From Candidatus Latescibacterota bacterium (GTDB taxonomy: Bacteria > Latescibacterota > UBA2968 > GCA-2709665): 64,000 nt of DNA. Position numbers and translations under genes: made by a program. The stretch spans positions 64,001-128,000 of the forward strand of contig OZ244744.1 in NCBI GenBank assembly GCA_965219455.1. The letters run 5' to 3'. How positions within the stretch are numbered: the first letter of the stretch is position 1; each line of letters opens with the position of its first letter. Under the pieces are notes generated by a model, which was given only the letters and a program-made list of their open reading frames with translations, had not been told where the DNA came from and searched no databases. Shown here piece by piece: positions 24,666 to 56,927 of this stretch.

Positions 24666-25703
24666 TCACTTTGACTTGCTCCGGTACTCGCGAAGTCGTG
24701 TACAGTCAACCAGCCGGTCAATTGTATTCGCTGTAAATACCTTCCCCCTCGTCGCAAGGATCATCTTCTTCATGTCTTCCCTGCGGACCCCGAAGCCGCG
24801 ACCGCCAATACAGGCGACAACCTGGAATCTCGGGTTTTTTCTCGTACGACCGGAAAGACTCAATTCACCCAGATGTTGAATCCTCGTAACTTTATCGCGT
24901 GCTGTCCCGTCATCTTCCGTTATTTTCGCCTCGATGATAATCTGAGGGTTGAATTCGCTCGGTACCATAAAGTCCGGTGTCTGGTCAAATCCCTCGATTC
25001 GTTCAGCGCGTTTCGTCTTACGGTAGCTGACCCCGGTCCTTACGAGCTCATCTTCAATCGCTGACTCCAGACTATCTCCTATAAGTTCACTCACCGAGTC
25101 ACGATGACCGGCAAATGGCCTTCCCAGGAATCGTTCGTACAGCAACATAGCATAAGGGACACCAATCCTCGCAAGGTTCTGGATGCTATCGACGCCGCGA
25201 CTCGTGTCGGCCTTGTCCAAGCGATGCAATTGGTCGCTCGGCACGTCCGGGACACCATGTACCAATAGCTGACAAGCTGCATTGACCATTGCTTGGAGCC
25301 GTACTAAGCTCTTTTGACCTGGGTTCAGTTCGTTCTCTGGTGCCATTCTGACCTTACGGTCAATCGAACGAGCGAATCCCTGGCTTACCGTGACACCGGT
25401 TCTCTGTGTGGTGACATAACCCCATTCAGGTGGGGTAAATCCAAGCATCGAACGCAAAACAACAATTGAAATCGGTTTGGAAAACACAACCGGAAGCAAC
25501 TCCTCAGGTTCAAAACTAGAGAAACTTTCGGTCGCAGCTTTCAAAGATTCGTACCCTCGCTCGAACACCGAATATTCAACAAAACCGACCCCTTTGGGAA
25601 GAACGATGAATTCTGACTCGAGGCTTGCAAATACGGCATCAACATAGCTGTCTGGGTCTGCGACAACCACATCAAAGGGGACTTCAAAAGGGAACTTCGG
25701 CAT
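24666..25703 (-). CDS. Putative type II restriction endonuclease (PD-(D/E)xK)
   Basis: TPDFMVP...IIIEAK catalytic motif, DGTARDK; overlaps the 3' end of the methyltransferase. Confidence 0.75.
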   Translation of the reverse strand: MPKFPFEVPFDVVVADPDSYVDAVFASLESEFIVLPKGVGFVEYSVFERGYESLKAATESFSSFEPEELLPVVFSKPISIVVLRSMLGFTPPEWGYVTTQRTGVTVSQGFARSIDRKVRMAPENELNPGQKSLVRLQAMVNAACQLLVHGVPDVPSDQLHRLDKADTSRGVDSIQNLARIGVPYAMLLYERFLGRPFAGHRDSVSELIGDSLESAIEDELVRTGVSYRKTKRAERIEGFDQTPDFMVPSEFNPQIIIEAKITEDDGTARDKVTRIQHLGELSLSGRTRKNPRFQVVACIGGRGFGVRREDMKKMILATRGKVFTANTIDRLVDCTRLREYRSKSK

Positions 25704-27888
25704 ACTCAACTCCATACTCCACATTTTTCTCGCGCGTGGCGAACAAGGGGAGGTTCTCTGCAGGCCCGCCGTGCTGCAAGCAGGCTTCTACATCCGTCCA
25801 TCCACCAAAGTCATGGATCCAATCGGCGACTCGGAGGATGCGTCTATTCGTTGGTTCGTCTTTCTGCCATCCTTGACGCAAAGACCAGATAGCCAGTCGG
25901 ATGAGATGTCCATATGCTACACATCTGATGTCACCGTCAGTTGGTCTTACGTTTCCGTTCCGTAAATGCTCCAAGTCTTTGGCAACGATGCGAGCTACTT
26001 CATCCGGGTTCCCGGCAAGCCATTTTCTTTGCATTGAACCAGTTTTTCGACAGACAAATATGGTGTCGACAATTGAGGAACCGGTCCCTCCTATATGTAT
26101 TGATGCACCCATTTCCGCCGGACAGGGAAGAGACGCCGAACATGTCAATCCTGAATCTAGGATAGCAACAGCTATAGGATAATAGGCTTCTACTTTGTTG
26201 TGGTGGTAGGTAAATGCCAACGGCGAACCCAGCTTTAGTGCCTTCGACATACATTGAAAAACGGAGGAAAGTCCGTCCGTAAAATGACTAATGCCCCGTC
26301 CCATGTCGACATTGCAGGTCAATTCATTTGGTGTGCGAGTCGACGAGACTTTGAATGCTTCTAGATCTCTGCCGATGAGCTTTCGCAACCAAACATAACA
26401 GAAATCCATGAGTTCTGCGTATTGCACATTGCCATAATAGGGCGGATCTGTAAAAACTGCGTCAAGTGAACCTTCAGGCAGCCTGGTAGATGCTGCGTCT
26501 CGACAAGAGATATCAATGAAGCGTGTTGATTCGGATCCGTCGTTCAGACGGCCGCCGATCCTTTCTCCTTCGACAGGTACGATTTTTTTTGATCGTCCCT
26601 GATGGATTACTTCAAACGGATGATCACAATATAATTTTGCTTTCTTAAACTTCTCGATGATGTTTGCCCATCCACCGCTACCCACACACACGTTCCGGCC
26701 TGACTCAATCATCCCAATTAAATTCGACTCGCAATGGATCAATCCGACTGGAAAACCGTGAATAGAGAATATATCCAAGGACTTCAATGCCCTTGTGTCG
26801 TAACGACACAGCATGTTTTGGTATCGGAGTAGATCAGACAGATTTGTAGCGAGAGCGTCACGGATGCGGACATCTTTGATTTTGCTGATCATTGCGGCCG
26901 ATAGTTCCAGGCCAAGTAACTGCCGACTGTTGAAGAGTTCTCGATAGCGAGTGTAACCCCAACGATGCAGGCGATTAGTCTCGTCGCCACTCGGGATCTC
27001 ATCGTCTGGAACATGATCATGGCGAGTCTCAGCCCAACGACGTTCAACCTCCGTAAGGCGCTCCTCATCCTGTCTATCCGGTCTCTTGAAGAATCTTCCG
27101 TTGTGGGATTTTTTGCACGCAGGACAATGATATTCCAATGCAAAAAGACGGTGCCGTGGAGGTCCAGCGTTCGGGTCAGGATACTTATTTTCGGCCCCAC
27201 AAGCCGAACATGAGCACCGGTTTCGCCTCGCAGGTCCATTCAATGTCAGTTTCGTATCGCAATAAATGCAATGTCCAGGGGTTTTACGATCGCTGCATTC
27301 GATCAATTCCCGGCAGTTCGGGCAAATAAACACGTTTTTTGGATGCCTGGAATCGGTGGAGAGGAGGTAGCCGGGAAAGAGATCTATATCGCTCTGACAT
27401 TGATGACACGACTTAACTTTGACCCATAGGAAGTATTTGGTATGGGCAGTGTTCGAGCCACAAAGTGTGCATTGTGTTCGATATAGATGTCCGATTTCCT
27501 TGTCTAATTTCCCTCGAAGGGATTCTGCGGCCTGAGTATATTCACGGAGATCGAGAGACTCGATTTCCTGTGTAACAATCCAGTATGACATAGGGTTTAT
27601 ATCGAATCCGGTGACATCACAGCCGACGCGGTTTGCCTCCAGAATTGGAATACCTCCGCCCATAAACGGATCGGCAACATGGCGGCCAGAAAGGTCGTTT
27701 GACATATAAAAGGTCTCTCGAATTGGTCTATCCAAGAACTCGGAGAGCAGTAGTCCGCGAAACAGTGTGCCCGGACGTCGAGCAAACCACTTGTGAACGG
27801 CAATAATTGGCCGGTAATTCTGCTGGATCTGCTTTTCCCTTAACGCCAGGTTCGCAATAAACGAAATATCGTAGTGCTTTTCTATCAT
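25684..27888 (-). CDS. DNA amino-methyltransferase with Zn ribbons (COG1743/DUF1156-like)
   Basis: HKWFARRP, motif I DPFMGGG, multiple CxxC pairs, motif IV VFTDPPY, FTYHH. Confidence 0.9.
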   Translation of the reverse strand: MIEKHYDISFIANLALREKQIQQNYRPIIAVHKWFARRPGTLFRGLLLSEFLDRPIRETFYMSNDLSGRHVADPFMGGGIPILEANRVGCDVTGFDINPMSYWIVTQEIESLDLREYTQAAESLRGKLDKEIGHLYRTQCTLCGSNTAHTKYFLWVKVKSCHQCQSDIDLFPGYLLSTDSRHPKNVFICPNCRELIECSDRKTPGHCIYCDTKLTLNGPARRNRCSCSACGAENKYPDPNAGPPRHRLFALEYHCPACKKSHNGRFFKRPDRQDEERLTEVERRWAETRHDHVPDDEIPSGDETNRLHRWGYTRYRELFNSRQLLGLELSAAMISKIKDVRIRDALATNLSDLLRYQNMLCRYDTRALKSLDIFSIHGFPVGLIHCESNLIGMIESGRNVCVGSGGWANIIEKFKKAKLYCDHPFEVIHQGRSKKIVPVEGERIGGRLNDGSESTRFIDISCRDAASTRLPEGSLDAVFTDPPYYGNVQYAELMDFCYVWLRKLIGRDLEAFKVSSTRTPNELTCNVDMGRGISHFTDGLSSVFQCMSKALKLGSPLAFTYHHNKVEAYYPIAVAILDSGLTCSASLPCPAEMGASIHIGGTGSSIVDTIFVCRKTGSMQRKWLAGNPDEVARIVAKDLEHLRNGNVRPTDGDIRCVAYGHLIRLAIWSLRQGWQKDEPTNRRILRVADWIHDFGGWTDVEACLQHGGPAENLPLFATREKNVEYGVEYAEVPF

Positions 27889-27982
27889 CAGACGGCTACC
27901 CATCCTTATATTGCGAACCACCCATTTATTCTAAGGATATTCTTAGCATCTCACATTGCACTGGGCAGATAATTGAGCAGGC

Positions 27983-41403: not shown

Positions 41404-42387
41404 CTAGATCCAGCCCGGCGTACCAATAGTATCCGCGATCGGGATCGCCCGTTCGAGTTCCGCATCGGTCAACGGCGGCAATTCTACGGTACGTGCGTTC
41501 TCCTCCACCTGGCGGCGGTTTTTGGCCCCGGCGATGACGCACGACACCCCCGGGTGATCCAGCACAAAACGCAGCGCTGCCTGCGCCATGGTTCGCTTCC
41601 GGTCTTGCAGGAACAGCAGCTGCGGCAGCCGCTTGAGCCCATCGACCGTCTCCGGTTTGTTGAAGCGTTCGTATCGCACGTCGTTTTCGGGGATGACGTC
41701 AGCCCCGGCGCCGAAATACCTGCCCGTCAGTTGCCCCTTTGCCAGTGGCACGCGAATCAACGTGCCGATATCCTCGGCCTTCGCCCAGTGCAGCAACCCT
41801 TCCGCCGTGCGTTCCAGCAGATTATAGCCGACCTGCAACATATGTACAGGACCCAGTGACCGAAGCCTATCGACCGCTGGCCGGCTATTGGTCGAAATCC
41901 CGTACCAACGCACCTTGCCCGCCTGTCGGAGCCTCGCGAGCGCATCCATTACCGCCGGCATCGCCCAATCGTAGGGAATGGCGTGCAACTGGTAAATGTC
42001 GATATGCTCCATTCCCAACCGTTCCAGGCTTCGCTCGCACGCCTCGGTAATCCTGTTCCGCACGGCCGACTCATCCCGCGTGCCGGAGTCAACCCCCGCG
42101 TTCGGCTGGACCTTGGATGCCACGACCCACCTGTCTCTCCGGCCTCGCAGGGCCTTTCCCACCAGGATTTCGCTGTGCCCCTCGCCATAACTCTCGGCGG
42201 AATCAATCAGATTGATCCCGAGTTCCTCGCACCGGTGAATCAGCGCAATCGACTCGGAATCCTCTGTTCCGGTCCATCCGAACCGTTTACCATCCGCCTG
42301 CCTCTGCATCCCGGATATCGGAAATGCGCCCAACCCGATTTCCGAAACCTCCAATCCGGTTTGTCCAAGCGTGCGGTATTTCATCAC
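41404..42387 (-). CDS. Aldo/keto reductase
   Basis: YRTLGQTGLEVSEIGLG, DSAESYG.GHSE, SLERL..IDIYQLH, GKVR..G.S, YNLL, PLA.G.LTG, AQAALRF. Confidence 0.95.
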   Translation of the reverse strand: MMKYRTLGQTGLEVSEIGLGAFPISGMQRQADGKRFGWTGTEDSESIALIHRCEELGINLIDSAESYGEGHSEILVGKALRGRRDRWVVASKVQPNAGVDSGTRDESAVRNRITEACERSLERLGMEHIDIYQLHAIPYDWAMPAVMDALARLRQAGKVRWYGISTNSRPAVDRLRSLGPVHMLQVGYNLLERTAEGLLHWAKAEDIGTLIRVPLAKGQLTGRYFGAGADVIPENDVRYERFNKPETVDGLKRLPQLLFLQDRKRTMAQAALRFVLDHPGVSCVIAGAKNRRQVEENARTVELPPLTDAELERAIPIADTIGTPGWI

Positions 42388-43943
42388 GTGTCCTCCAACA
42401 GCATCGCCCTTGTCTCGCCGCCGGGCGGCAGAACAACATCATGCCACGCCGCTCCCGGCTGCCTCCAGGAAAAGCTCACGTACGCGTCACCACCGTTGTT
42501 AATCCGGACGCTCCCCGCCGCCGGGCCGGGTGGGACGACCAGCGAAACCACCTGCTCCGGTAGACCGGGCTCACCGACCGACCGGCGAAATTCCACCGCG
42601 GGCATCACCGCGCCCAGGCGCTCTCGGGCGCCCAGTACCAAAGGTCCGTAGCATCCGGTCACTGCTCCGGAACCCCAGTTTCTTCCGTGGCCGGCCGCGA
42701 CGGAGCAGACTGCCCCGCCCATGTCCGCATGCTCCCGTCCGCCCCTCAACACGCGTCGCGCCACCCTTAACTTCCTCGATGCCTGCCTCAGCGCCCGCGA
42801 TGCAAAAGAAACATCCCCGGTGATCTGATAGGCCAACGTCAACGTGGCCGTGCAGGGCTCGCGCCCAGGCGCGATCCGGTCGATGCCGTCTACCTGCACA
42901 CCCCAGTGCACCATATCCGCCCGTTTTCCGACGCCTGGAAAGACCATTCTCGGAATCTCGGGCACCATCAGCACGAGTTCACCGGCTTCCCCGTCCGGTA
43001 TCCGCGCAACCATCTCGCGGATGCGGCCATCCAATGTATCGTCGCCGAATGCGCCACGGTAATATGAGACGGCAGCCGCGCCGGGATCGCAATACGGGTC
43101 GTGAAGCATGACGACAAGCCCCTCCACGATCCGAAACGCCGCGTCGCGGAAGACCTGCTCGCCTGAAAGCAGGAACAGGTCACCCAGCGCCTGAACCGCT
43201 CCGGAGGCGAGAAGGACCTCCACACCCGCCGCCGGATCGCCCTGTAAACGGTGGCTGGCGGCGCTCATCCGACGCTGCGATTCCGTGTATCCGCATTCAC
43301 GGAGCGGATGCCCGTCCGGCCCCCACATCACCGGCAAATCCCCCTTCGGAGCCGCAACGATCATCTCCGCGCGACGCCGGCCGTATCGCAACGCCCAATC
43401 CAGGTACCGATCCTGTTTCAGTACCCGGTAGGCCGCCAGGGCGATATGGATAAACCGGAAATGCTCCGCCAGTTCCACCGCGTGCTCCGGATCCCGCCCC
43501 ACGGCCCGCGTTCCGATGTGGTACCCGTAGAACCGATTCCGAACCCAGTCGAACCACGCCGGAATCCCCTCCACCCAGTTCCCGATATGTTCCGCCGCGT
43601 CGGCGAGCAGTGCCGCTGCCACGCGATCCTCAGGAAACAGACCCAGGTAGCGCGGGAGAAAAAGCAGAAACGGTTCGGTGCCGTGATGCGCTTCAGCTTC
43701 CGGCTCGTAACCGTGCAGACATTCCCGTTGGACCCAACCCGCAAGCTGATCCCGGAGATGCTCGAAATGTTCCACCACTGCCGGGCTGCCCGTTGCCAGA
43801 AAGTGCGGAAACCAGGCCAGGGCGTAGTTCGCTTCATCCTCTCCCCCGCCGTGCCGGCCCGGCGGATCCATGCTCCGGCTCTGCTTCAACCAGGCTTCCA
43901 TCTCCTTCCGAAGGGCGACGTAATGTCGGAAACAGGTCTGCAT
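42384..43943 (-). CDS. Hypothetical protein (helical, possibly alpha/alpha toroid)
   Basis: 519-codon ORF with host-like codon usage; stop overlaps the AKR start. Confidence 0.75.
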   Translation of the reverse strand: MQTCFRHYVALRKEMEAWLKQSRSMDPPGRHGGGEDEANYALAWFPHFLATGSPAVVEHFEHLRDQLAGWVQRECLHGYEPEAEAHHGTEPFLLFLPRYLGLFPEDRVAAALLADAAEHIGNWVEGIPAWFDWVRNRFYGYHIGTRAVGRDPEHAVELAEHFRFIHIALAAYRVLKQDRYLDWALRYGRRRAEMIVAAPKGDLPVMWGPDGHPLRECGYTESQRRMSAASHRLQGDPAAGVEVLLASGAVQALGDLFLLSGEQVFRDAAFRIVEGLVVMLHDPYCDPGAAAVSYYRGAFGDDTLDGRIREMVARIPDGEAGELVLMVPEIPRMVFPGVGKRADMVHWGVQVDGIDRIAPGREPCTATLTLAYQITGDVSFASRALRQASRKLRVARRVLRGGREHADMGGAVCSVAAGHGRNWGSGAVTGCYGPLVLGARERLGAVMPAVEFRRSVGEPGLPEQVVSLVVPPGPAAGSVRINNGGDAYVSFSWRQPGAAWHDVVLPPGGETRAMLLEDT

Positions 43944-44169: not shown

Positions 44170-45537
44170 TCAGGAGATGCGTTTGAGCCCCGCATCGAAC
44201 GCCGACACAATTCGATCCGCTTCTTTCCGGGTCAGTATCAGGGGCGGCGCCAGAAAGAAAATGCTTTCCGGCCCGGCCATCACGTGGCTCATGCGCCCCA
44301 CGATCACGCCGTGTTCCAAAATGCCCGCCTGCACGGCAGCAACCCGCGCGGCATCCACCATGGCGCCATTCTCCGCGGTAAGTTCCACGGCGATCATCAG
44401 CCCCTTGCCTCGCACGTCGCCGACGAACGGAGAATCCAGCCCTCTTAATTCGTCCAGAAGGTACGCGCCCACCTCCGCCGAATTCTCCCACAATCGTTCG
44501 GCCATCATAATGTCCAGGTTCGCCAGGGCCGCGGCGCAACAAACCGGGTGCCCGCCATAGGTGGCCACCGAGGAGAATTCACGCGCTTCGTCGGGCTCGC
44601 CCATAAACGTTTCGAACACCTCCGACGTCACCGCGCAGGCCCCGAGGGGCAAATAACCACTGGACACCCCTTTGGCCAGGGTCATCACGTCCGGAACCAC
44701 ACCCCAGTGCTCCGACGCGAACAGTTTGCCGGTACGGCCGAACCCCGTAATCACTTCGTCAAGAATCAAGAGCACGCCATACCGGTCACAGATCTCGCGC
44801 AGGCGGGGAAGGTACTCGTCCGGCGGGATGATCACGCCGCCGCCGCCGATTATCGGTTCGGCGATGACCGCAACTACCGTTGTCGGATCCTCCCGGACAA
44901 TGACCTCTTCGATCTCGTCCACGCACGCCACGCCACAGTCGGGATAGGTCAGTTTCAACGGGCAGCGATAACAGTAGGGAGGGTCCACGTGGAAGAACCC
45001 CGGCATCAGGGGCTCGAACTTGGCCCGCCTCGCAACCTGTCCCGTCGCGGACATGGCGCCATAGGTAAACCCGTGATAACCCTGGTATCGCGCGATCACC
45101 TTGTACCGGTTCTGGCCCGGAAATTTCTGCCGGCCGTACTGCCGCGCAATCTTCAACGCCGTCTCGTTCGCCTCCGAACCGCTGTTGGAGAAAAAAAGAT
45201 GGTTGAGATCCCCGGGCAGCAATTCAGCCAGCCTGGTTGCAAGCTTTGCGGCAGGCAGATTCACCTGGAGATGGGGATAGTACGAAAGCCGCAACATCTG
45301 TTCGTACACGGCCGTCGCAATCTCCTGGCGGCCGTATCCCACGTTGACGTTCCAGAGTCCCGCGTAAGCATCCAGGTACTCCCGACCCTCGGCATCCACC
45401 ACTCTTGTTCCCTTCCCTCTGTGGACCACCATCAGATCCCGGTGCTCCAGAGACCGGTGCTGTACCATCGGATGCCAGACGTGCGCGCGGTCCTGCGCCC
45501 GAATTTCCTCAACATCCGGTTGATGTGTGTCCGCCAT
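44170..45537 (-). CDS. Class III PLP-dependent aminotransferase
   Basis: D..HVWHP, YLDAYAGLWNVNVGYG, SGSEANETA.K, YHG.T.GA, AEPI.GGGG, DEVITGFGRTG, AKG.SSGY.P, TYGGHP. Confidence 0.95.
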   Translation of the reverse strand: MADTHQPDVEEIRAQDRAHVWHPMVQHRSLEHRDLMVVHRGKGTRVVDAEGREYLDAYAGLWNVNVGYGRQEIATAVYEQMLRLSYYPHLQVNLPAAKLATRLAELLPGDLNHLFFSNSGSEANETALKIARQYGRQKFPGQNRYKVIARYQGYHGFTYGAMSATGQVARRAKFEPLMPGFFHVDPPYCYRCPLKLTYPDCGVACVDEIEEVIVREDPTTVVAVIAEPIIGGGGVIIPPDEYLPRLREICDRYGVLLILDEVITGFGRTGKLFASEHWGVVPDVMTLAKGVSSGYLPLGACAVTSEVFETFMGEPDEAREFSSVATYGGHPVCCAAALANLDIMMAERLWENSAEVGAYLLDELRGLDSPFVGDVRGKGLMIAVELTAENGAMVDAARVAAVQAGILEHGVIVGRMSHVMAGPESIFFLAPPLILTRKEADRIVSAFDAGLKRIS

Positions 45538-45570
45538 CGGCTTCCCCCGTTCTGATCGACGATATTTGGC

Positions 45571-45651
45571 TTGACTCCCCCGGGCCTCATATCTACTTTG
45601 CAACCTCGATTTCAGAGGCACCATCATACGCTATTCAACGACTGAAGTCAA
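45571..45651. promoter_or_regulatory. Pair of face-to-face sigma70 promoters
   Basis: Plus strand TTGACT(45571)-17-TACTTT(45594); minus strand TTGACT(45651)-17-TATGAT(45628). Confidence 0.65.
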
Positions 45652-45811: not shown

Positions 45812-47116
45812 ATGGTCACACCCGAACACCATACCGTCATCATCGTGGGTGGGGGCCCGGCGGGTCTGCCATTGGCCGTCGTGCTTGGCGGATGGCATCC
45901 GTATTATTGCGGCGGCGGCCTTTTCCGCGACCGATACGAGCAGGTCGACCGCTACCTTCGGAGCGTGAACGGCACGCTGCTCGGCCTCGATTTCAGAGCC
46001 GTCGTGAATGCCGGTATCCGTCCGGTGGACCTGTTTCGGCTTCTGCACCATCCGGGACAGAAGTTCCGCGGCCAGGATGAAATCGCCCTGAAATTCCGCA
46101 GACGTGAACCCGTCGACGTGTTGCTGATCACCCAGGAAGAGGTCGGCGGCGTGTGGAACAATGTACCGAAAAACATGTTCACGCTTTCTCCCGGACAGTG
46201 GATGGAATTCGCCTTCCATCCGCTCGACCGGCATTGCCGCGAACAACGGATAGATCTCGACGTCAACGCCCTGATCGCCAAACGTCATCTCATCGACTAT
46301 TACCACGCCGTCCCGGGCCGCTTCGAGGTCGCCGACCACATACGCACACACGAAAGAGTTACGCGCATCCAGCCTCACGACAGGGGTTTTCTGCTCACAT
46401 ATAGTGAAGTCGGCACGGGAATCTCTCGTCGTTACACCTGCAAGTACCTCGTATACGCGGTGGGCCAGCGTTGCATTCTGCGAAAACTCAACGTACCGGG
46501 CGAACACCTCCCGTTCGTAACTTCAGGCTACGATCAACCCGAAAGCTATCCCGGCAAACGCATCCTTGTCGTGGGGGGAGGCCGGTCCGCCGATTGGGCG
46601 GCGACCGAGCTGCACGACGCCGGCAAACAGATCCACTACGTCATGCGCCAGCCCTTCGATCATCACTGGCGCCTCATTTCCGACAGCCGCTTCGGCCTAC
46701 CCTACTACGCGCGCATCGCCGATATCATGGAAGGCCGATCCGACCGCCTGAATGCCCGCTATGAAACCCGGATCCTCGGTTTCGAGAAGGGCGTGTCCGG
46801 CGGTATTGCCACCCTTTGCCGCAATGGCAACCGCGAAACACTGGAAATCGACCACGCCATCCTTGAAATCGGCGGCATTGCGGATTACTCTCTCTTCGAG
46901 GGTTTTCCACCGCTCCCTGCAGTGGACAAATATGACAATTATCGCTTCCAGGTTCATCAATTGCCCATATATCCCCACAACTATGAATCCACAGCCGTAA
47001 CAAACCTGTATCCCGGCGGTTACCTGGCCGAAGGCATCGGCCTCGTGGTGATCGGTATGCACGGCACAACCTACGCCATCGCCGGTGACATTCTTCAGAA
47101 AGAAGGGCGGCTGTAG
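45812..47116 (+). CDS. FAD/NAD(P)-dependent oxidoreductase, OSGIN1/OKL38-like
   Basis: IIVGGGPAG (FAD), ILVVGGGRSA (NADPH); GGVWNN...MFTLSPGQWM and L.VPGE.LPF resemble animal OSGIN. Confidence 0.85.
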   Translation: MVTPEHHTVIIVGGGPAGLPLAVVLGGWHPYYCGGGLFRDRYEQVDRYLRSVNGTLLGLDFRAVVNAGIRPVDLFRLLHHPGQKFRGQDEIALKFRRREPVDVLLITQEEVGGVWNNVPKNMFTLSPGQWMEFAFHPLDRHCREQRIDLDVNALIAKRHLIDYYHAVPGRFEVADHIRTHERVTRIQPHDRGFLLTYSEVGTGISRRYTCKYLVYAVGQRCILRKLNVPGEHLPFVTSGYDQPESYPGKRILVVGGGRSADWAATELHDAGKQIHYVMRQPFDHHWRLISDSRFGLPYYARIADIMEGRSDRLNARYETRILGFEKGVSGGIATLCRNGNRETLEIDHAILEIGGIADYSLFEGFPPLPAVDKYDNYRFQVHQLPIYPHNYESTAVTNLYPGGYLAEGIGLVVIGMHGTTYAIAGDILQKEGRL

Positions 47117-47277: not shown

Positions 47278-48477
47278 GTGCCCGTCACCATCCGCGACGT
47301 CAGAACCATTCTCACCCAGCCGGCCGGATCACGCCTCATCGTGGTCAAAGTCGTCACTTCCGAACCCGGTCTCTACGGCCTCGGCTGCGCCACGTTCACC
47401 CAGCGTTTCCATGCGGTCCGCACCGCCCTTGAAAAACACATCAAACCCCTTCTCATCGGACGTGACGTCGACCGCATTGAAGACATCTGGCAGATATGTA
47501 TGCTCAACGGATACTGGCGCAACGGCCCCGTACTCAACAACGCGATTTCCGGCGTCGATATCGCTCTATGGGACATCAAGGGCAAGCGCGCGGGCATGCC
47601 AGTCTATCAGCTGCTGGGCGGCAGATGTCGCGAAGCCGCAGCCTGTTACGCACACGCCGACGGTCGAGACAGGAACGAAGTCCTCGACAACGTCCTGAAA
47701 TTCCACGAACAGGGCTACCAGCACATTCGCGTGCAGATGGGCGGGTACGGCGGCAGGACGTCCCGCTTGCGCAAACCGGAAGGTTCGCAGGAGGGCGCGT
47801 ATTATGATCCGCGGGAATACGCCCGCGGGATGCTCGACATGATCGGGCATGTCCGCGCAAACGCCGCCCCGCATATCGAACTCCTCCACGACATCCACGA
47901 ACGCATGGTCCCCATAGACGCGGTCCAGTTCGCGAAGAATGCGGAACCCTTCAAGCTGTTTTTCCTGGAGGATCCGCTCGCCCCGGAAGATCTGGAATGG
48001 TTCCGAAACATCCGGCGTCAATGCGCCACGCCCATCGCCATGGGGGAACTCTTCAACCACCCGCGAGAGTGGACCCCACTCATCGAGGACCGGCTGATTG
48101 ACTTTATCCGAATGCACATCAGCCAGATGGGGGGCCTTACCCCCGCCCGCAACGTGGCGATATTTGCCGGCATGTACGGCATTCGCACCGCCTGGCACGG
48201 TCCCGGCGACGTTTCGCCCGTCGGCCACGCCGCCAACCTGCACCTGGATCTCTGGGCGCCCAACTTCGGAATCCAGGAGTGGTGCCGTTTCAACGAACTC
48301 GTCTACGAGATCTTTCCGGGCACGCCTGAAGTTAGAGGCGGTTACATGTATCCCAACGACCGGCCCGGCCTCGGTATCGACATTGACGAGGACCTCGCCT
48401 CGAAGCACCCCTGTCAGGATGAGATTATCGGCTGGACGCAGGCCCGCCTGCCGGATGGCTCACCCGCCAGGCCCTGA
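47278..48477 (+). CDS. Enolase-superfamily acid-sugar dehydratase (RspA/ManD-like)
   Basis: GLGCATFTQR, YWRNGPV.NNAISGVDIALWDIKGK, LLHDIHER, FFLED, MGELF, TAWHGPGDVSPVG. Confidence 0.93.
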   Translation: MPVTIRDVRTILTQPAGSRLIVVKVVTSEPGLYGLGCATFTQRFHAVRTALEKHIKPLLIGRDVDRIEDIWQICMLNGYWRNGPVLNNAISGVDIALWDIKGKRAGMPVYQLLGGRCREAAACYAHADGRDRNEVLDNVLKFHEQGYQHIRVQMGGYGGRTSRLRKPEGSQEGAYYDPREYARGMLDMIGHVRANAAPHIELLHDIHERMVPIDAVQFAKNAEPFKLFFLEDPLAPEDLEWFRNIRRQCATPIAMGELFNHPREWTPLIEDRLIDFIRMHISQMGGLTPARNVAIFAGMYGIRTAWHGPGDVSPVGHAANLHLDLWAPNFGIQEWCRFNELVYEIFPGTPEVRGGYMYPNDRPGLGIDIDEDLASKHPCQDEIIGWTQARLPDGSPARP

Positions 48478-48576: not shown

Positions 48577-49446
48577 ATGATAAGAATCGGAATCGTAGGC
48601 GCGGAAAACAGCCACACCGTCGCCATTTCGAAAACGTTGAACATCGACAAAAAAGTACCGGGCTGCCGCGTCACCCATGTATGGGGCGAAGCCGACCGGT
48701 ACGCCAAAGACGCTCAGGATCGTGGACAGATCCCAAATATTGTCAGGAACCCCGAAGATATGATCGGTCAGGTCGACGCCGCGTGCGTGGACCATCGCGA
48801 CGCGAAATACCACCTGCCGGCGGTCTGGCCGCTGATAGAAGCCGGAATCCCGGTATTTGTGGACAAACCGTTCTGTTATCGCGTCTCGGAGGGCAGGCGT
48901 TTCCTGGACCGCGCGGCGGGACTCGGGGTCCCTGTCTGCTCCTTTTCGGTGTTACCCAAACAGAAGTCCTTCAGCCAACTGAAAAAAGACATCGGTGAGT
49001 TGGGTCGGATCGTCTCCGTGGTTACGACCGGTCCGTGCGATATCAAATCCAATTGGGGCGGCGTCTTCTTCTATGGTATCCACCAGGTCGACATGGTCGT
49101 GCGGCTGCTTGACAGCGACATTACCCACGTGGATGTCAACAGGGGTAAAAAGAATCATACCGGCACGCTTTACTCCGCGAGCGGCGCCATCTCCACGCTC
49201 AATCTCTTCACCGAAGGTCACTCCGCATTCCACGTGTCTGTGATCTGCGAAAAAGGGCGCGTCGACCGCGTCATCGGCTATGACGACAATCCTTATCTGG
49301 GCGGCGCAGAAGCCTTCTGCAACATGTTTAAAACCGGCATCACCGACGAAACGCGCGAGTCGATGCTGAAGCCGGTTGCCGTACTGGAAGCGATGGAGAA
49401 ATCCATCGACCAGAAAAAGAAAATCGAAGTACCGTCCATCGCATAG
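48577..49446 (+). CDS. Gfo/Idh/MocA family oxidoreductase
   Basis: IGIVGAENSH, P.FVDKP, FFYGIH. Confidence 0.85.
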   Translation: MIRIGIVGAENSHTVAISKTLNIDKKVPGCRVTHVWGEADRYAKDAQDRGQIPNIVRNPEDMIGQVDAACVDHRDAKYHLPAVWPLIEAGIPVFVDKPFCYRVSEGRRFLDRAAGLGVPVCSFSVLPKQKSFSQLKKDIGELGRIVSVVTTGPCDIKSNWGGVFFYGIHQVDMVVRLLDSDITHVDVNRGKKNHTGTLYSASGAISTLNLFTEGHSAFHVSVICEKGRVDRVIGYDDNPYLGGAEAFCNMFKTGITDETRESMLKPVAVLEAMEKSIDQKKKIEVPSIA

Positions 49447-50694: not shown

Positions 50695-51957
50695 TCAGAA
50701 ATAATAACGCAAAGACGCGAAATACACCGCCGGATACAGTCCGAACTCCGATTCAGGGAACTCTGAAAATCCGGATTGAGTGGAGCCGGGGCGCCCACCA
50801 ATCCCGTAGAACACGCCACCGGAAACAGACGCATCCTGGAAGAATCCATACTCGAAGGCTGGCGACAGAAACGCCGACCGGTCCGCAAGGTTCCACAGCA
50901 CCGGCACGCGAATCGACCAGAGCGGTGTGAGTTGCCATGCCAGTGAAGGCGCCGCATAGTGCCTGCCCAACAGATAGACTCCTGCCGTGGTATGGGTCGG
51001 ATCGTTGAGCAGACTCCGATAGTCCCGGGTACTGGAAACGCCCGCGCCGTTCAGGTGATACTCGAGGGTACCATAGACCCCATTTGAGAATCGATAGTCG
51101 AGACCGGTCGAAATCCGCATGAACGACCGGCCACCCGCCGCGCGGGTCCACGCGGCCTCCAGCCATGCGCCCGCGTCCCCCAGCGACCTGGCCAGGTCCG
51201 CACCCAGGAGCAGATTATCCTGGTACATCATCGCCGTCACATAAACATCCGTTCCGTGCGTAAAGAAACGGCCGCGAACAAAGCCCGCGCCACGCTTCTT
51301 CGAGAGATCCCATCCTGGAATAACACCTGCGTCCAGTTCGCCCATCATCCCAACAGGCGCACGCAACCTGATCGCATCCACCCCCACCCGTTCTTCTTTG
51401 TCCATCACCTCGGGGGAATATGGCACGATGACATCGGTCGGATTCACCGCCCGCGCCGAACCGAATGCGACGACCTGTCTGCCAACGTAGACGTCCGCAC
51501 GCGGCAGTGAAACCGTCACCGACGCGCGGTCCAGATTCTGGGTTACGGTAAACCCCCGGCCCGTGCCGTCAGTACGAGGAAACAGTCTGGTCCTGAGATC
51601 CTTCACCCGGTAACCGAAAAGCGCGGGCGCCGGCAACCGGGAGGCTTCCAATAACGGCGCACCCGGGATTCTCCCGGACAATTCGTACGCGAACTCGCCC
51701 GATAGCCCGGGACCCGGTCGCCAGAACAACTCGAAGCGAACGCGGTTCAACAATATCCGCCGGGTCTCCGGGTTCCGGATTTCCGAGTCGGGCACCGGCA
51801 CCTGAACCATTGCAAAGCTCTTCACGTATCCACTCAGCCTGAGGCTGCCTTGGTCCGTCCACGCCCGCGTCGGCATCAGGACAAAGAGAATCAGGCAGCA
51901 CAGGAATAACCCATTCGCCTGCGGGTGGGGCCTGCTACTACCCGCTCCGGGTAACAT
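50695..51957 (-). CDS. Putative outer-membrane beta-barrel protein of the LolA-like/ABC cluster; start uncertain
   Basis: Signal-like segment; LDRA, GRQ.V.FG, NPTD, D.EER.GVDA, terminal YYF. Confidence 0.8.
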   Translation of the reverse strand: MLPGAGSSRPHPQANGLFLCCLILFVLMPTRAWTDQGSLRLSGYVKSFAMVQVPVPDSEIRNPETRRILLNRVRFELFWRPGPGLSGEFAYELSGRIPGAPLLEASRLPAPALFGYRVKDLRTRLFPRTDGTGRGFTVTQNLDRASVTVSLPRADVYVGRQVVAFGSARAVNPTDVIVPYSPEVMDKEERVGVDAIRLRAPVGMMGELDAGVIPGWDLSKKRGAGFVRGRFFTHGTDVYVTAMMYQDNLLLGADLARSLGDAGAWLEAAWTRAAGGRSFMRISTGLDYRFSNGVYGTLEYHLNGAGVSSTRDYRSLLNDPTHTTAGVYLLGRHYAAPSLAWQLTPLWSIRVPVLWNLADRSAFLSPAFEYGFFQDASVSGGVFYGIGGRPGSTQSGFSEFPESEFGLYPAVYFASLRYYF

Positions 51958-52639
51958 CCTGTACAATGCATCCATCCTTCAGCAACACCAAACGTTTCGC
52001 CCGATCCATAATCATCTGATCGTGAGAAGAAAATAAAAAAGTCATCCGCCGTCGCTCGTTTAATTCCCTCATCAGGTCCAGGAGCGCGGCGCCAGTGGCT
52101 GAATCCAGATTCGCCGTGGGTTCATCCGCGAGGATCAGATCCGGCTGCGAGACCATCGCCCGGGCGACCGCCACGCGTTGTTGCTGCCCGCCCGAGAGTT
52201 GGGGTGGGCGCCGGTCCTCCATTCCCTCCAGACCAACAGTGGCCAACATCTCCCGCACCCGTTCGCGGCGCGCGCGATGCGGCACCCCCTGCAGCAACAT
52301 GACATATTCGATATTTTCGAGCACCGTCAACACCGGGATCAAATTGTACGCCTGGAATATAAACCCGATATGGTCCCTGCGAAAGTCGGACAGCGCGCGT
52401 CCGCCCATCTCGCTGATCGGTGTTCCGGCCAGCCTGACCCGGCCGATTGTGGGCGAATCCAATCCGCTCAGGATATTGAGCAACGTGGATTTGCCGGATC
52501 CCGACGGTCCCGCAATGGCAGTAAACTCACCCTGCGAAACTTTGAGATCCACAGACCTCAACGCCGATACGCGCACCTCCCCCGCGCGGTAAATCTTGCT
52601 CACGCCTTCCGCTTCTATCACCACGGAATTTCCCGTCAT
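51938..52639 (-). CDS. ABC transporter ATP-binding protein (LolD/MacB type)
   Basis: [40 protein letters not shown]. Confidence 0.96.
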
Positions 52640-52668
52640 ACTTCACTCCCAAGCCCCGCGGTTTGTAT

Positions 52669-53895
52669 TCACTCGTACGTTTTCATCGCCTCAGCCGGAT
52701 TCAGGCGGGCCGCGTAGACGGCCGGATAGACCCCGGCAACCAGCGTAAAAAGAAATACGCACACCGGAAACAGGACGAACTGCTCCACCCGCAGGACCGG
52801 ATAAATCAACTCCCGCAGCGTCACGCCCGCAAACTCAATGCCGGCGTAATCGATCCCATAGATGGAATACACGGAAGTCACGACGAATCCCAGACCGCAA
52901 CCAATCACAATGCTGAGCACTGAAAGCGCACCCGCCTCGAACAGAACCATCATCGCCATACGGCCTGGACGGGTGCCCACCGCGCGCAGGACACCGAACT
53001 CGAACATCCGTTCGTGAAGCGACATGAACAGGGTGTTGACAATGCCCAGTGACACCACTGCAAACAGGATGGCGCCCACAATAAACGATGAGAACCCGGT
53101 CATTTCAACCACCGCACTGAGTTGGGGCATCAGGGCCCGCCAACTCCGGGCTGCGTTTCCGTTTCGCGACAGTCGCGACCAGAAAAGGGCATCCGTTGCC
53201 TCGTTTCCGGAGGACGACTTGAAATGCAGGGCAATCTCGTGCACCTCACCAGGAAGTCCGAGTAGACGTTGCACGGTCTCGATATGCGTGAAACCCACCC
53301 CGCCGTCCAGCTCACCGACGTCAAAGTGGAAAATCCCGCCCACCCGGAACATCTCCTGGGCTAATTCGTCGGTTTCAGCCTCCGCCGCCGTCACGACCAC
53401 CCGGTCGCCCACGCCGACCTCCAACGTTTTGGCCAGTTTCGACCCCAGCAGAATCTTTCGACGGTCATCTCGCTCGAGGAACGAACCTTCAACAATGACC
53501 TCGTGGATTTTGGAGAACGCCCTTTCCAGGTCGGGGTCGACGCCGTAAAGCAGCACAGTGCCCGACGTCGCCGGCGAGGCCAGCATACCGGGCGTCTGGA
53601 CGCGCAACGAAATGCGTTCCACTTCGGGATCGGCCTTCAGGCGCTCCAACACACCGGGCAGCCCCCGCACGGTCCGCGACACCTCGCGGGTGCTCCTGAA
53701 TCCTTCGGCGTGTACCTGGCCGTGTCCCATGAATGTATCCGTCGCAATCCGAATGATGCTTTCGGACATCCCGATCATCAGTCCGTCGGTAAAGATCAAC
53801 GCCGCCAGCCCAATTCCGATGGCGAACCCGGCCAGCAACGTCCGCCGTGCGTTTCGAAAAGTATTCATCCAGGCTATTTTCATTAAAAACAACAT
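52669..53895 (-). CDS. ABC transporter permease (LolC/E, FtsX-like)
   Basis: RN.RRT, GH.QVH, NTLFMSL.ER..EFGVLRAVG, YPA..AARLNP.EAM. Confidence 0.92.
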   Translation of the reverse strand: MLFLMKIAWMNTFRNARRTLLAGFAIGIGLAALIFTDGLMIGMSESIIRIATDTFMGHGQVHAEGFRSTREVSRTVRGLPGVLERLKADPEVERISLRVQTPGMLASPATSGTVLLYGVDPDLERAFSKIHEVIVEGSFLERDDRRKILLGSKLAKTLEVGVGDRVVVTAAEAETDELAQEMFRVGGIFHFDVGELDGGVGFTHIETVQRLLGLPGEVHEIALHFKSSSGNEATDALFWSRLSRNGNAARSWRALMPQLSAVVEMTGFSSFIVGAILFAVVSLGIVNTLFMSLHERMFEFGVLRAVGTRPGRMAMMVLFEAGALSVLSIVIGCGLGFVVTSVYSIYGIDYAGIEFAGVTLRELIYPVLRVEQFVLFPVCVFLFTLVAGVYPAVYAARLNPAEAMKTYE

Positions 53896-54000
53896 GATGT
53901 GTTCTTTCGACGACCCATTCGGATTTTCCGAACCGATCCCGACGCGCCGTGGACCCGCAACGACGCCGAGCCATCCGCGGATGAGGGCGCCAGTCTCCGC

Positions 54001-55215
54001 TCAATGTGTTCGCATCGCCCGCGCGGGCGCCACTTTTGCCGCGCGGGTCGCGGGAAACAGACTCACAAGAACGGCGGTGCCGAAGGTCAGCACCGCCGGA
54101 ATCCAGACCGACCGGAACGTAACCATACTGATCAGCCGATCGAAAACGTAACCGCCGTACTCCACGGGCGTCGGATAGACGATTCCATGTTTCGACAGGA
54201 TGGTGTTTCCTATCAAGCCCAAAACCCCGCCAAGAAGCACGCTGAAACCAGACAGATAGACCGTCTCGCCCAGGATCAACAAAAACACGTTCGCCGGCCT
54301 CGTACCCAGCGCGCGCAGAACGCCAAATTCACGTGTACGCTCCAGAATGGCCATCAGTACGGTATTCAGGACACCGATGGCCACAATCAGATTGATGATT
54401 CCCAGAGAAATCCACATGCCCTGAACATCGGCCTGCATCGCCCGGTAAAACGTGCGTTCAACCACCTGCCACGGTGAAACGTCGAGGGAGGCATCCGCCA
54501 GGAGGCCTTCCAATTGTCCAGCGGCGTGCAACGACGCCGAAGGATCCTCAAGCACAATTGCCACTTCGTGAACGCGGCGACCCAACGCCAGGAACCGCTG
54601 CGCCTCCTCGAGGTGCATATAACAGGCCGCGCGCTGGTACGGATCGGTGCCGTCGCCCACAATGCCCACGACGCGGTAGACGTCGTTGGCTATGGACCCG
54701 TCCGCTGCCTGCCCGATCAATATTACCTCATCGCCCGTGGTTGCGTTTAACGCCTCCGACAGTCCATGGCCCAGCATCACCTCCGACCCGGAACGCCCGG
54801 TCAGAAAACGACCCGCGCTCACTTTTAATTTGAGACGGGTCGTCCGTGCTTCGCGGCCGGGCAACACGCCCACAATCCGCGCGCCCGTGGTCTTTTTGCC
54901 TGCCGCGGCGAGTACCGGAGAATACACCCGGGGCGTCCATGCTTCCACACCGTTTAATGACCCGATGATCTCCCCGACCCGATCCGGATCGCCAATAGCA
55001 TTGTAAAGCGTGGGCCTGTCAAGATACCCTTTCCCGTGAACCTGGACGTGGCCGGTCCGGTCCCTGGTAAACGCCTCGATCAGACCCAGATAGGTGCCAT
55101 CCGAAATCCCGATGGACAACGAGCACAGCAAAAATCCGCCCGCCATCGCCGCCAGTGTCAACACCGATCGACGACGCTGCCGGAATAGATTTCGAAACGC
55201 GATTCTGAGCACCAT
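54001..55215 (-). CDS. ABC transporter permease (LolC/E, FtsX-like)
   Basis: IAFRNLFR.RRRS, GHVQVH, NTVLMAILERTREFGVLRALG, FPA.RAA. Confidence 0.92.
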   Translation of the reverse strand: MVLRIAFRNLFRQRRRSVLTLAAMAGGFLLCSLSIGISDGTYLGLIEAFTRDRTGHVQVHGKGYLDRPTLYNAIGDPDRVGEIIGSLNGVEAWTPRVYSPVLAAAGKKTTGARIVGVLPGREARTTRLKLKVSAGRFLTGRSGSEVMLGHGLSEALNATTGDEVILIGQAADGSIANDVYRVVGIVGDGTDPYQRAACYMHLEEAQRFLALGRRVHEVAIVLEDPSASLHAAGQLEGLLADASLDVSPWQVVERTFYRAMQADVQGMWISLGIINLIVAIGVLNTVLMAILERTREFGVLRALGTRPANVFLLILGETVYLSGFSVLLGGVLGLIGNTILSKHGIVYPTPVEYGGYVFDRLISMVTFRSVWIPAVLTFGTAVLVSLFPATRAAKVAPARAMRTH

Positions 55216-55357
55216 GGACGAATATCCGCCTCGTACTTAACTCTACAAAAACGATGAAGCCGTCAGCCTGACTCTGCGCCACTGCCGCTGACAGCGACCC
55301 GATGCAGCGCACGGAACCACCCCTCCTGCGGAAACCCGTTGTACTGCTCCCTGCTGT

Positions 55358-56107
55358 TCATCGGCGGCGCCGCAAATTCCGATGCGTAAACGTCTCCTTT
55401 GCCAGTTGACGATCGAATCGTGCGTCCAGATATCGAATGACCGTTCGGTATCCTTCTTTTCTCAACGGCTTCATTTCCAGCACCGCGGGCAAGGTACGCC
55501 CTCCGAAATCCCTGGGTTCCGAAAACGTCATCTCCCGCATCGGATCGCCGCGCTCGTCGAAATAAACGTACGAGAGCGGGATCAGATCGGACTTTCGTAT
55601 CTCAAGTACGATCTTTCCCCAAACCGTGGGTGTCTCATCCCGCGGAATCAGCACGATTTCATAAGCCTGGTCGTTCCCGGGCTTCCCGAAAGCCGGCTGG
55701 TAATCCGCCGCGAGCGAACTCTCCTTCACCAGATCGTCATTGGTAAAATCGGAACCCATCCAGGATCCCATCATCATCGACGGCGGAACTTTAATCACTT
55801 TGTCGATCCTGGGGAAATAGTTCCACATATCTGTATTCATACGCAACGTGGAGGTGCCCGCTTCTTTTTTCGGGGCCAGAATCGTGACAAAGGTCTTGCA
55901 CAACCCTTCGGTCCACATCTTCATCCGGAGGGTCCGCCGCCAGTGGGGCGTCTGGATTTCCATTTCCAATTCGGCGAAGCTGGTTTCGCTCCGGTACAAC
56001 CGGTCCATACGATCCACCAGCACCTGAATATCCCGGATCTCTTCCGCATGAACGCCGGTGGAACACAGAATCAATCCGGCCAGCGCGATTGGAAGCGTTC
56101 GCAGCAT
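55358..56107 (-). CDS. Outer membrane lipoprotein-sorting protein (LolA-like)
   Basis: D.LYRS.TS, TP.WRRTL, PKKEAG, MWNY.P, PPSMM.GSWMGSDFTNDDLV. Confidence 0.92.
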   Translation of the reverse strand: MLRTLPIALAGLILCSTGVHAEEIRDIQVLVDRMDRLYRSETSFAELEMEIQTPHWRRTLRMKMWTEGLCKTFVTILAPKKEAGTSTLRMNTDMWNYFPRIDKVIKVPPSMMMGSWMGSDFTNDDLVKESSLAADYQPAFGKPGNDQAYEIVLIPRDETPTVWGKIVLEIRKSDLIPLSYVYFDERGDPMREMTFSEPRDFGGRTLPAVLEMKPLRKEGYRTVIRYLDARFDRQLAKETFTHRNLRRRR

Positions 56108-56171
56108 CAGGTGCTCCTTTCCCTTGCGGCGTCCGTTGCCATGCCGGTCACCTGACATCCCCAACAGATCG

Positions 56172-56927
56172 CTATCGCTTCCAGAATGGACTTGCCACGT
56201 CCGAGAACGTAACCCGGCCGAAATCATCCGGCGCATGAAACTGCGGCTCCGGCGTAGTGCTGGCGGACCACTGGCTGAACTGCGCGTTGGTTTTTCCGCC
56301 CAGCCGGTTCAGGTTCAGGTTCCAGACGTCACCCGGCGCCGGCGGTGTGCGTTTGGCGACCCCGGCGAAATTCTCGAACGGTATGGCGGCCTCCAGGACC
56401 CAGTATGAATCGGTATCCTCGTCGTGGTTTAACGTGCCCGCGATAAACGTTGAAACCTGAAGACCTCTCGCCCGCCACCCCGTATGCACGACCTCACCGG
56501 CCCCCTTCGGATTGAACCGTTCCAGATAAATACTCAGTACATTCATCTCGATATTGAAATAAACGTGCGGCATGTCCGGATTCGGGGCCATAAACACTTC
56601 CACGCAGTCGTCATCGTAAACGGCGCTGTTTCGCTCGGTGTGATCCGCCCAGATATGGGCGTCTTCGCAGATATACGCCACGTAGAGATGGGTATCGTCC
56701 CAGAGAATCTTCGCCACCGTCTGCTCCTGTTTGCCTTCGCTGTACCAGGGAAAGACGAACGCCCCCACGTCGGGCGCAGCCACCCACGCCGGTTCGTCCA
56801 GCCGTCCGTCAACGGTTATCGGCGTTCCTGCTCGATAAATCGAATAGCTCGGCCAACCTTCGGCATGCGCTGAATCAAACGCCAGGAAAACAACAAGGAA
56901 CACAATACTCGCCAGCAGAAATTCCAT
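56172..56927 (-). CDS. Carbohydrate-binding family 9-like (CBM9-like) exported protein
   Basis: DGRLDEPAW, K.LWDD..LY, DDCVEVF, YFNIE.N, W.LE.AIP, GDVW.LN..R, FH.P..FG. Confidence 0.88.
   Translation of the reverse strand: MEFLLASIVFLVVFLAFDSAHAEGWPSYSIYRAGTPITVDGRLDEPAWVAAPDVGAFVFPWYSEGKQEQTVAKILWDDTHLYVAYICEDAHIWADHTERNSAVYDDDCVEVFMAPNPDMPHVYFNIEMNVLSIYLERFNPKGAGEVVHTGWRARGLQVSTFIAGTLNHDEDTDSYWVLEAAIPFENFAGVAKRTPPAPGDVWNLNLNRLGGKTNAQFSQWSASTTPEPQFHAPDDFGRVTFSDVASPFWKR

Follow-up and report, generated by a model that had tools for sequence, protein, structure and literature searches.

A bacterial flavoprotein family with an OSGIN-type insertion in a Latescibacterota genome, a putative sister family of the OSGIN (OKL38) monooxygenases

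We analysed a stretch of 64,000 nucleotides from a Candidatus Latescibacterota bacterium (contig OZ244744.1, positions 64,001 to 128,000 of the forward strand), referred to below as the window. An ATG-started open reading frame (ORF), present in the ORF list and confirmed by its translation, lies exactly at 45812..47116 on the forward strand and encodes a flavoprotein of 434 aa, P0001. The coding sequence is supported by full-length relatives of equal length at 57-100% identity and by an AlphaFold2 (AF2) model of the product. An earlier note on this DNA had proposed that P0001 is a bacterial homologue of the oxidative stress-induced growth inhibitors OSGIN1 and OSGIN2 (OKL38), on the strength of eight sequence blocks. 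All eight blocks of the window protein were located, at residues 9-18, 21-31, 55-61, 74-81, 112-131, 160-164, 226-235 and 251-260, and the homology was borne out: P0001 and OSGIN proteins are collinear through a shared insertion, OSGIN-like hits rank above YpdA-like ones, and the trees agree. OSGIN1, OSGIN2 and C. elegans OSGN-1 are flavin monooxygenases (FMOs) of animals, fungi and some protists which, like P0001, contain two Rossmann domains. According to one study, their roles lie in cytokinesis and stress responses (PMC10945809). The G+C content around the flavoprotein gene (0.59-0.61) is the same as that of the window, and the region is chromosomal, since rpsB, tsf, frr, rplM and uvrB are found in the same window.

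Two dinucleotide-binding motifs were recognized in P0001 by regular-expression search, and their conservation was followed in an alignment of 48 rows. These comprised nine members of the bacterial family to which P0001 belongs (hereafter the family), 22 OSGIN-like proteins, 11 YpdA-like proteins and six outgroups: E. coli TrxB, the thioredoxin reductase (TrxR) domain of a cyanobacterial protein, a TrxR-like protein, two FMO-like proteins and one protein of the MSMEG_0569 family. The GxGxxG motif for flavin adenine dinucleotide (FAD) is GGGPAG, starting at residue 13 (residues 13-18; 45848..45865; this and all other features inside the gene are on the forward strand). Its G13, G15 and P16 are conserved across family, OSGIN-like, YpdA-like and outgroup rows, including 22/22 OSGIN-like rows (GNGPSG in OSGINs) and 8-9 of the nine family rows. 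The second motif, for NAD(P)H, is GGGRSA and starts at residue 255 (residues 255-260; 46574..46591). Downstream of it, R279 (46646-46648) is retained in 9/9 rows of the family, 19/22 of the OSGIN-like group and 10/11 of the YpdA-like group and, by analogy, is likely to be the ligand of the 2'-phosphate of NADPH. Between the two motifs lies a block made of GG.W and LSPGQWME (residues 112-132; 46145..46207), defined by its conservation among the rows, with GGVW at residues 112-115 and LSPGQWME at 125-132. Towards the C-terminus, the FAD-contact motif NLYPGGYLAEG (residues 398-408; 47003..47035) is specific to the family, with a glycine, G403, that is invariant across all row groups.

The AF2 model of P0001, built on 27 family members, has a mean predicted local distance difference test (pLDDT) score of 87.7 and a predicted template modelling (TM) score of 0.84. 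When it was compared with the PDB by Foldseek, the top match was Bdr/YpdA (7a76, E 1.9e-21, TM by target 0.82-0.84), followed by TrxR-like ferredoxin-NADP reductases, TrxR and the N-hydroxylases KtzI, SidA and PvdA (TM by query 0.55-0.60). By fold and motifs, P0001 is predicted to be a flavoprotein of the two-Rossmann type using FAD and NAD(P)H. It has no obvious signal peptide and is therefore probably cytosolic. The protein contains no CxxC motif, and the family has no invariant cysteine, the most frequent ones being C210 (86% of 123 members) and C221 (75%). None of the curated NCBIfam models reaches its cutoff with P0001. The low-Mr TrxB proteins share its superfamily fold, and some relatives of P0001 are annotated as 'thioredoxin reductase', but P0001 lacks their CxxC and scores 28.9 bits on TIGR01292, for which the cutoff is 343.

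The most distinctive feature of P0001 is an insertion in its first Rossmann domain. The earlier note had described an atypical insertion of about 70 aa between GxGxxG and GG.W, and this proved to be real. It measures about 74 residues (27-100; 45890..46111) and was apparent both as a gap in the Pfam match and in the alignments: the Pyr_redox_3 match (4.6e-21) spans residues 92-287 only, the N-terminal GxGxxG (residues 8-25) being matched separately. In the AF2 model the region is mostly helical according to DSSP, with strands at 28-32 and 93-97, helices at 36-41, 43-50, 61-66 and 71-79, and block pLDDT values of 85-96. It thus appears as an extra subdomain that separates Rossmann helix A (19-25) from the canonical strand 2 (103-106), the strand ahead of GG.W. 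In the multiple alignment the insertion pairs with OSGIN-like proteins and faces a gap in YpdA-like ones. The 17 YpdA-like, TrxR and FMO-like rows carry three residues each in these columns (17/17). Because the insertion is present in 31/31 rows of the family and the OSGIN-like clade and in 0/17 of the other rows, it represents a single change on the tree.

The spacing and the residues of the insertion are also shared. GxGxxG and GG.W lie a median of 93 residues apart in the 119 family members, out of 120, in which both motifs occur, and 96-102 residues apart in 20/20 named animal OSGINs. Within the insertion, G27, P30, L49, D60, P71, L78 and P81 are conserved in family and OSGIN-like rows, these positions being gaps in YpdA rows. 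In the adjoining block, G112, G113, W115, S126, W130 and M131 are present in 9/9 family rows (8/9 for S126) and in 20-22 of the 22 OSGIN-like rows. The positions of G113, W115, W130 and M131 hold other residues in YpdA rows; W115 is found further in three FMO/MSMEG_0569-like rows, and in no YpdA-like or TrxR row. The likeness to OSGIN includes an insertion of ~74-100 residues running from helix A to strand 2 with the elements G..P(Y/H)Y and L.HP, the GG.W and LS.G.WME blocks, and an alignment that is collinear from end to end. In both P0001 and OSGIN, moreover, Pyr_redox_3 begins only past the insertion, and Bdr/YpdA is the best relative in the PDB.

We searched a library of 1.84 billion representative proteins exhaustively by phmmer, in which P0001 gave 544 matches at E <= 1e-3. 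After the representatives of the family itself came seven full-length OSGIN-like proteins: P0140 (3.4e-26), P0148 (1.5e-19), P0149 (2.4e-19), P0153, P0154, P0163 (9.5e-15) and P0165. In all seven the alignment begins near residue 5-9 and continues collinearly through the insertion. The first YpdA-like match, P0169 (3.2e-13), ranks below these seven and aligns from residue 119 only. P0163 is named 'oxidative stress-induced growth inhibitor 2-like [Cimex lectularius]', and its relatives named OSGIN1/2 come from insects, arachnids, fishes and amphibians. When profiles were compared by hhalign, the family matched 20 named animal OSGINs with E 2.5e-39 over 426 columns (residues 6-441), the insertion included. 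Given this value and the phmmer E of 9.5e-15 to the OSGIN2-like protein, the sequence similarity of P0001 to OSGIN lies far beyond chance. A single-sequence comparison gave a similar picture. By BLASTP, residues 16-485 of a fish OSGIN1 (P0341, Misgurnus) align with residues 9-430 of P0001 at 23% identity (E 6e-18), with equivalent collinear blocks from end to end, whereas a true YpdA (P0216) aligns at residues 156-408 only (E 4e-10).

The outcome that would have refuted the earlier note, best hits to ordinary YpdA proteins together with an insertion that does not align with OSGIN, did not occur. The family scored 54-101 bits with 10/10 named animal OSGIN queries, YpdA-like proteins reaching at most 60.6 bits and always scoring lower, in a local set that was picked for likeness to P0001 and may lack YpdAs nearer to OSGIN. 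A hidden Markov model (HMM) of the 20 named animal OSGINs, used as a stand-in for the curated InterPro/PANTHER model, matched P0001 with 91.6 bits in one end-to-end domain (5-430). We further scored targets of either group with the HMMs. All nine OSGIN-like targets (9/9) scored higher with the family HMM (93-163 bits) than with the YpdA-like HMM (56-108 bits), and 5/5 YpdA-like or TrxR-like targets scored higher with the family HMM (74-91 bits) than with the OSGIN HMM (36-72 bits). Since both kinds of target prefer the family HMM, the family is a bridge, the nearest relative of both the OSGIN-like and the YpdA-like groups by these scores. A resemblance of OSGIN to YpdA has reportedly been noted since 2004.

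Several differences from OSGIN were also observed. The NADPH motif is GGGRSADW in the family and GAGLSAAD in OSGIN. Instead of the OSGIN signature VVGAGLSAAD...H.FR, the family has VVGGGRSADWAA ... YVMRQ, so that R258, D261, W262 and Y276 stand in place of L, A, D and H. At the C-terminus the family carries YPGGYLAEGIGL, compared with GPLxGDNFVRF in OSGIN; against the pattern GPL.GDNFVRF the family shows YPGGYLAEGIGLVV, with Y404, G408, L411 and V413 where OSGIN-like rows hold P, D, F and R. With its 434 aa, P0001 is shorter and lacks the variable loops of the animal proteins.

Maximum-likelihood (ML) trees of the 48 rows joined the family with the OSGIN-like clade. Support by the SH-like approximate likelihood ratio test (SH-aLRT) was 80 in a quick search on all columns and 85 when the insertion columns (62-173) were removed. 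A careful search on the reduced columns gave 92 by ultrafast bootstrap (UFBoot) and 85 by SH-aLRT, and omission of three long FMO-type rows raised the SH-aLRT value to 99. In the careful search, support was 100/100 for the family itself and 100/99 for the OSGIN-like clade, inside which the animals are deeply nested; the stem branches measure 1.28 and 0.84 changes per site. The FMO-type rows formed long branches next to the clade of family and OSGIN-like proteins, and the TrxR rows fell outside. The trees thus point to the family as the sister of the whole OSGIN-like clade, not placed inside it and not an OSGIN orthologue.

Two small groups of OSGIN-like rows were observed in the same tree. P0140, P0171 and P0183 (378-422 aa), which come from short assembled contigs, form a small basal branch of the OSGIN-like clade (100/99), possibly a second lineage of OSGIN-like proteins in prokaryotes. 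P0140 is the nearest non-family match of P0001; its close relatives amount to P0183 alone, together with two weak matches (E 1e-6 and 3e-5). P0165 and P0174 (400-424 aa) are sister to the animal OSGINs (UFBoot 98, SH-aLRT 96). The OSGIN-like rows marked 'int' or 'unk' (the latter being P0148, P0149, P0153, P0165, P0174 and others) carry no label of a source organism.

The distribution of the family was followed in three collections. A clustered-protein search covering 5.8 billion proteins gave 509 matches at E <= 1e-3 among 8000 scored candidates, and the best 120 of these 509 have 57-100% identity to P0001 over at least 92% of the query. Named sources among the matches listed are metagenome-assembled genomes (MAGs) of Latescibacteria, Handelsmanbacteria and Gemmatimonadetes, and the relatives are labelled 'thioredoxin reductase', 'NAD(P)-binding domain-containing protein' or 'hypothetical protein'. 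In a scan of GTDB species genomes, 14 stretches were confirmed among at least 600 that matched, and 10 of them are family loci, giving a lower bound for the taxonomic range: at least five loci in Latescibacterota, at least two in Gemmatimonadota, and at least one each in Poribacteria, Zixibacteria and Chloroflexi. Identity of loci L001-L009 to the window copy is about 60-64% across Latescibacterota, Gemmatimonadota, Poribacteria and Zixibacteria, and 41% for the Chloroflexi copy. Such unusually high identity between phyla suggests either strong constraint or lateral spread among these groups. A search of the PLSDB plasmids yielded no family member and three weak partial matches only.

We then considered the genes around the flavoprotein gene. 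Upstream and divergent, at 44170..45627 on the reverse strand, lies a class-III (omega-type) aminotransferase gene (Pfam Aminotran_3, 7.8e-101; NCBIfam PRK07678, 510 bits, above the cutoff of 488). Among the loci listed, such a gene adjoins the flavoprotein gene only in the window and in L005, a Latescibacterota locus (OZ240241.1). Downstream, at 47278..48477 on the forward strand, is a gene for an acid-sugar dehydratase of the enolase superfamily, similar to ManD and galactonate dehydratase (Pfam MR_MLE_N and MR_MLE_C). Its product scores 400 bits on the NCBIfam ManD model, under the cutoff of 550. An MR_MLE gene stands beside the flavoprotein gene in three of 11 loci (the window, L005 and L010), and a GarD-like dehydratase gene is near it in L008. 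In L005 (8403-15291) the ManD-like gene is split, about 6 kb with four transposase genes (IS1595-, Mutator-, ISL3- and ISAzo13-type) lying between its parts. A GFO/IDH/MocA-type dehydrogenase gene follows in the window at 48577..49446 on the forward strand (Pfam PF01408, 2.4e-9), and after it an M19 dipeptidase gene on the opposite strand. Beyond the aminotransferase gene, a 519-aa ORF at 42384..43943 on the reverse strand belongs to no recognizable family (no Pfam, NCBIfam, PDB or PADLOC match). By tblastn, two Latescibacterota loci have it close to the flavoprotein gene: L005 with 60% identity over 513 aa, and L003 with 76% over a 179-aa fragment.

The earlier note had named the aminotransferase, the dehydratase and the dehydrogenase as neighbours and had suggested that they may hint at the substrate. 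The neighbours are as it described them; the hint did not hold up, the arrangement of the window recurring in just one of the 10 related loci listed (L005). Genes for GFO/IDH/MocA proteins, xylose-isomerase-like TIM proteins, SBP_bac_5 proteins and acid-sugar dehydratases recur loosely at family loci. The neighbouring ORFs without an assigned function had no match in PADLOC, the PDB or NCBIfam. Promoter-like sites (3, as compared with 2.0 +/- 1.5 in shuffles) and terminator-like sites (2, as compared with 5.4 +/- 2.0) were not above shuffled sequence, and scans of the window for Rfam families and tRNAs found none.

Two further features of the window lie away from the flavoprotein gene. The G+C content falls to 0.476-0.498 between 22000 and 28000, compared with about 0.58 elsewhere, in a stretch adjoining frr-tsf-rpsB. 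Its four ORFs (23008-24351, 24345-24650, 24666-25724 and 25684-27921), all on the reverse strand, have no Pfam match at 1e-8. The 745-aa ORF of this stretch matches DNA-methyltransferase models of PADLOC (HmaB, 1.5e-22; PglX, 1.1e-21; DUF1156_MTase, 8.7e-21), and the stretch may be an acquired restriction or defence island. Elsewhere, a 426-aa ORF at 50695-51975 on the reverse strand, with no Pfam, NCBIfam or PADLOC match, lies directly upstream of genes for an ATP-binding cassette ATPase, two MacB/FtsX-type permeases and a LolA-like protein (51938-56236).

The interpretation that we favour, with moderate confidence, is that the family stands between the YpdA/Bdr reductases and the eukaryote-type OSGIN (OKL38) monooxygenases, and that P0001 is a flavin monooxygenase or oxidoreductase that depends on NADPH and whose substrate is a small sulfur- or nitrogen-based nucleophile. 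In the study cited above, OSGN-1 and human OSGIN1 bind FAD and carry out NADPH-dependent oxidation of methimazole and, directly, of 5-thio-2-nitrobenzoate (TNB) (PMC10945809). In P0001, NADPH bound at GGGRSA and R279 would reduce FAD held by GGGPAG, by the acidic end of strand 2 and by the C-terminal motif around G403. The reduced flavin would then most likely react with O2 to give a C4a-(hydro)peroxyflavin able to oxygenate a small soft nucleophile such as a thiol, a thioether or an amine. We put this oxygenation at an even chance or slightly less, and direct reduction of a disulfide by the reduced flavin instead at a clearly lower level. The insertion and the LSPGxWME loop would probably shape either the substrate pocket or an oligomer interface. 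The ORF, its motifs, the fold, the homology and the place in the trees are results of the analysis, whereas the cofactors, the preference for NADPH, oxygenation over reduction and the class of substrate are the parts of this proposal that we infer.

Several results weigh against this interpretation. The YpdA-like HMM scores 123.9 bits on P0001, in two domains (5-25 and 98-363), which exceeds the 91.6 bits of the OSGIN HMM, and the hhalign match of the family to 20 YpdA-like proteins is as strong as that to OSGIN, with E 3e-39, though across 295 columns (105-437). Over its core (about residues 100-430), the protein resembles YpdA no less than OSGIN, and the family profile matches Bdr at 3.8e-18. 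The phmmer margin is small, 70.5 bits for a named animal OSGIN and 65.5 for the best YpdA-like protein. The approximately unbiased (AU) test does not reject the best-scoring topology in which the family groups with YpdA (delta lnL 10.9, p 0.144). The FMO motif FxGxxxHxxx[YF] was not found in P0001 by regular-expression search. Gene context gives no consistent substrate clue, and we draw no conclusion on the substrate from it, because the recurring neighbour families are common elsewhere in the window too. Finally, YpdA works without a catalytic cysteine, and the absence of such a residue therefore does not exclude a reductase.

These same data bear on the best-surviving alternative, that the family consists of NADPH-dependent disulfide reductases of the YpdA/Bdr type, acting on disulfides of low-molecular-weight thiols, with an extra subdomain and with reduced FAD acting directly on the disulfide. 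We hold this to be possible but unlikely. According to a preprint, bacillithiol disulfide is reduced by YpdA/Bdr at the flavin itself, and no redox-active cysteine takes part (bioRxiv 10.1101/2020.12.02.408641). P0001 shares with YpdA/Bdr (TIGR04018; PDB 7a76, 7a7b and 7apr), its best solved relative by sequence and fold, the two-domain architecture and the lack of a redox-active cysteine near the flavin. Its NADPH domain (PGE.LPFV..Y....Y.G.R.LVVGGGRSA) is more YpdA-like than OSGIN-like, it scores higher on the YpdA-like HMM than on that of OSGIN, and the AU test does not reject the YpdA grouping. TIGR04018 is also its best NCBIfam match; however, the score is 63.8 bits over residues 156-280 only, the cutoff being 339.9 and true YpdAs scoring 347-433 bits. 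The FAD-binding Rossmann fold of YpdA is contiguous and begins with GGGPCG, whereas that of P0001 is interrupted by the 74-residue insertion and, in an HMMER alignment with the YpdA chain, has Ala in place of the Cys. Both the insertion and the GG.W/LSPGxWME block are missing from 11/11 YpdA-like rows, and the ML trees join the family with OSGIN-like proteins instead. To our knowledge, moreover, the host phyla are not known bacillithiol producers.

An amine N-hydroxylating monooxygenase, similar to SidA, PvdA or IucD and acting on an amine from the divergent omega-aminotransferase in a small secondary-metabolite or catabolic pathway, appears improbable. The idea draws on the adjoining aminotransferase gene, on the Foldseek matches to KtzI, SidA and PvdA at TM by query of 0.55-0.60, and on a weak Pfam Lys_Orn_oxgnase match (E 3.2e-4) that is precomputed on many relatives as well. 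That match is nevertheless under its cutoff (20.4 bits, cutoff 21.3), YpdA and OSGIN are far closer by sequence, and an aminotransferase neighbour is found in one of the 10 related loci listed, the syntenic L005. The class B flavoprotein monooxygenases in general (FMO, SidA, PvdA, KtzI) resemble P0001 in having GG.W after the FAD motif and two Rossmann domains, but P0001 lacks their FxGxxxHxxx[YF], matches PF00743 with E 0.01 and 14.8 bits (cutoff 22), and scores 35 bits on the ArsO model (cutoff 425).

Recent capture of an animal OSGIN gene from a eukaryotic host, for which one may cite that the nearest distinctive relatives are eukaryotic OSGINs and that the family occurs in MAGs of Poribacteria, Latescibacterota and Gemmatimonadota (several carrier phyla include sponge symbionts), is very improbable, as the family is monophyletic (100/100) and outside the whole OSGIN-like clade (100/99) on long stems, identity to the fish OSGIN1 is just 23%, the local G+C of 0.59-0.61 fits the window, and the setting is chromosomal, with rpsB, tsf, frr and uvrB nearby and no plasmid-borne members in PLSDB. 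The earlier note had left open whether the family was the prokaryotic source of OSGIN or a host-related acquisition. A recent acquisition is disfavoured because the family is not nested in the animals, the stems are long and the G+C is native; a prokaryotic source is compatible with the data and unproven. In the latter case, a YpdA-like reductase would have gained the insertion and the FMO-like GG.W chemistry in a bacterial lineage, and the gene would then have passed to an early eukaryote, a history that we consider doubtful.

A 2025 review states that InterPro lists 81 bacterial proteins under OKL38, and the OKL38 family is for that reason not wholly unknown in bacteria (PMC11940746). The literature otherwise regards OSGIN as restricted to eukaryotes, and OSGIN1/2 are disease-linked animal flavoenzymes with no solved structure and no known physiological substrate (PMC11940746). 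The PDB holds no OSGIN structure. Our literature search, which left most subscription journals outside its reach, found no paper on a bacterial family with the OSGIN insertion. What we describe is no new kind of system; it is a sister group of OSGIN found in bacteria, and InterPro already assigns some bacterial proteins to OKL38.

In evolutionary terms the family links the thiol-disulfide reductases of bacteria to the OSGIN monooxygenases, and its recognition corrects the labels 'thioredoxin reductase' and 'NAD(P)-binding domain-containing protein' that its genes carry. As a soluble bacterial protein of 434 aa, P0001 should express easily and may serve as a stand-in for a poorly understood human enzyme family. 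If a bacterial lineage was indeed the source of OSGIN, the bacterial enzyme would share the physiological reaction of OSGIN, and would offer a tractable model in which to solve a structure of the OSGIN type for the first time and to identify the substrate, be it a small molecule or a protein, that OSGIN1/2 oxidise.

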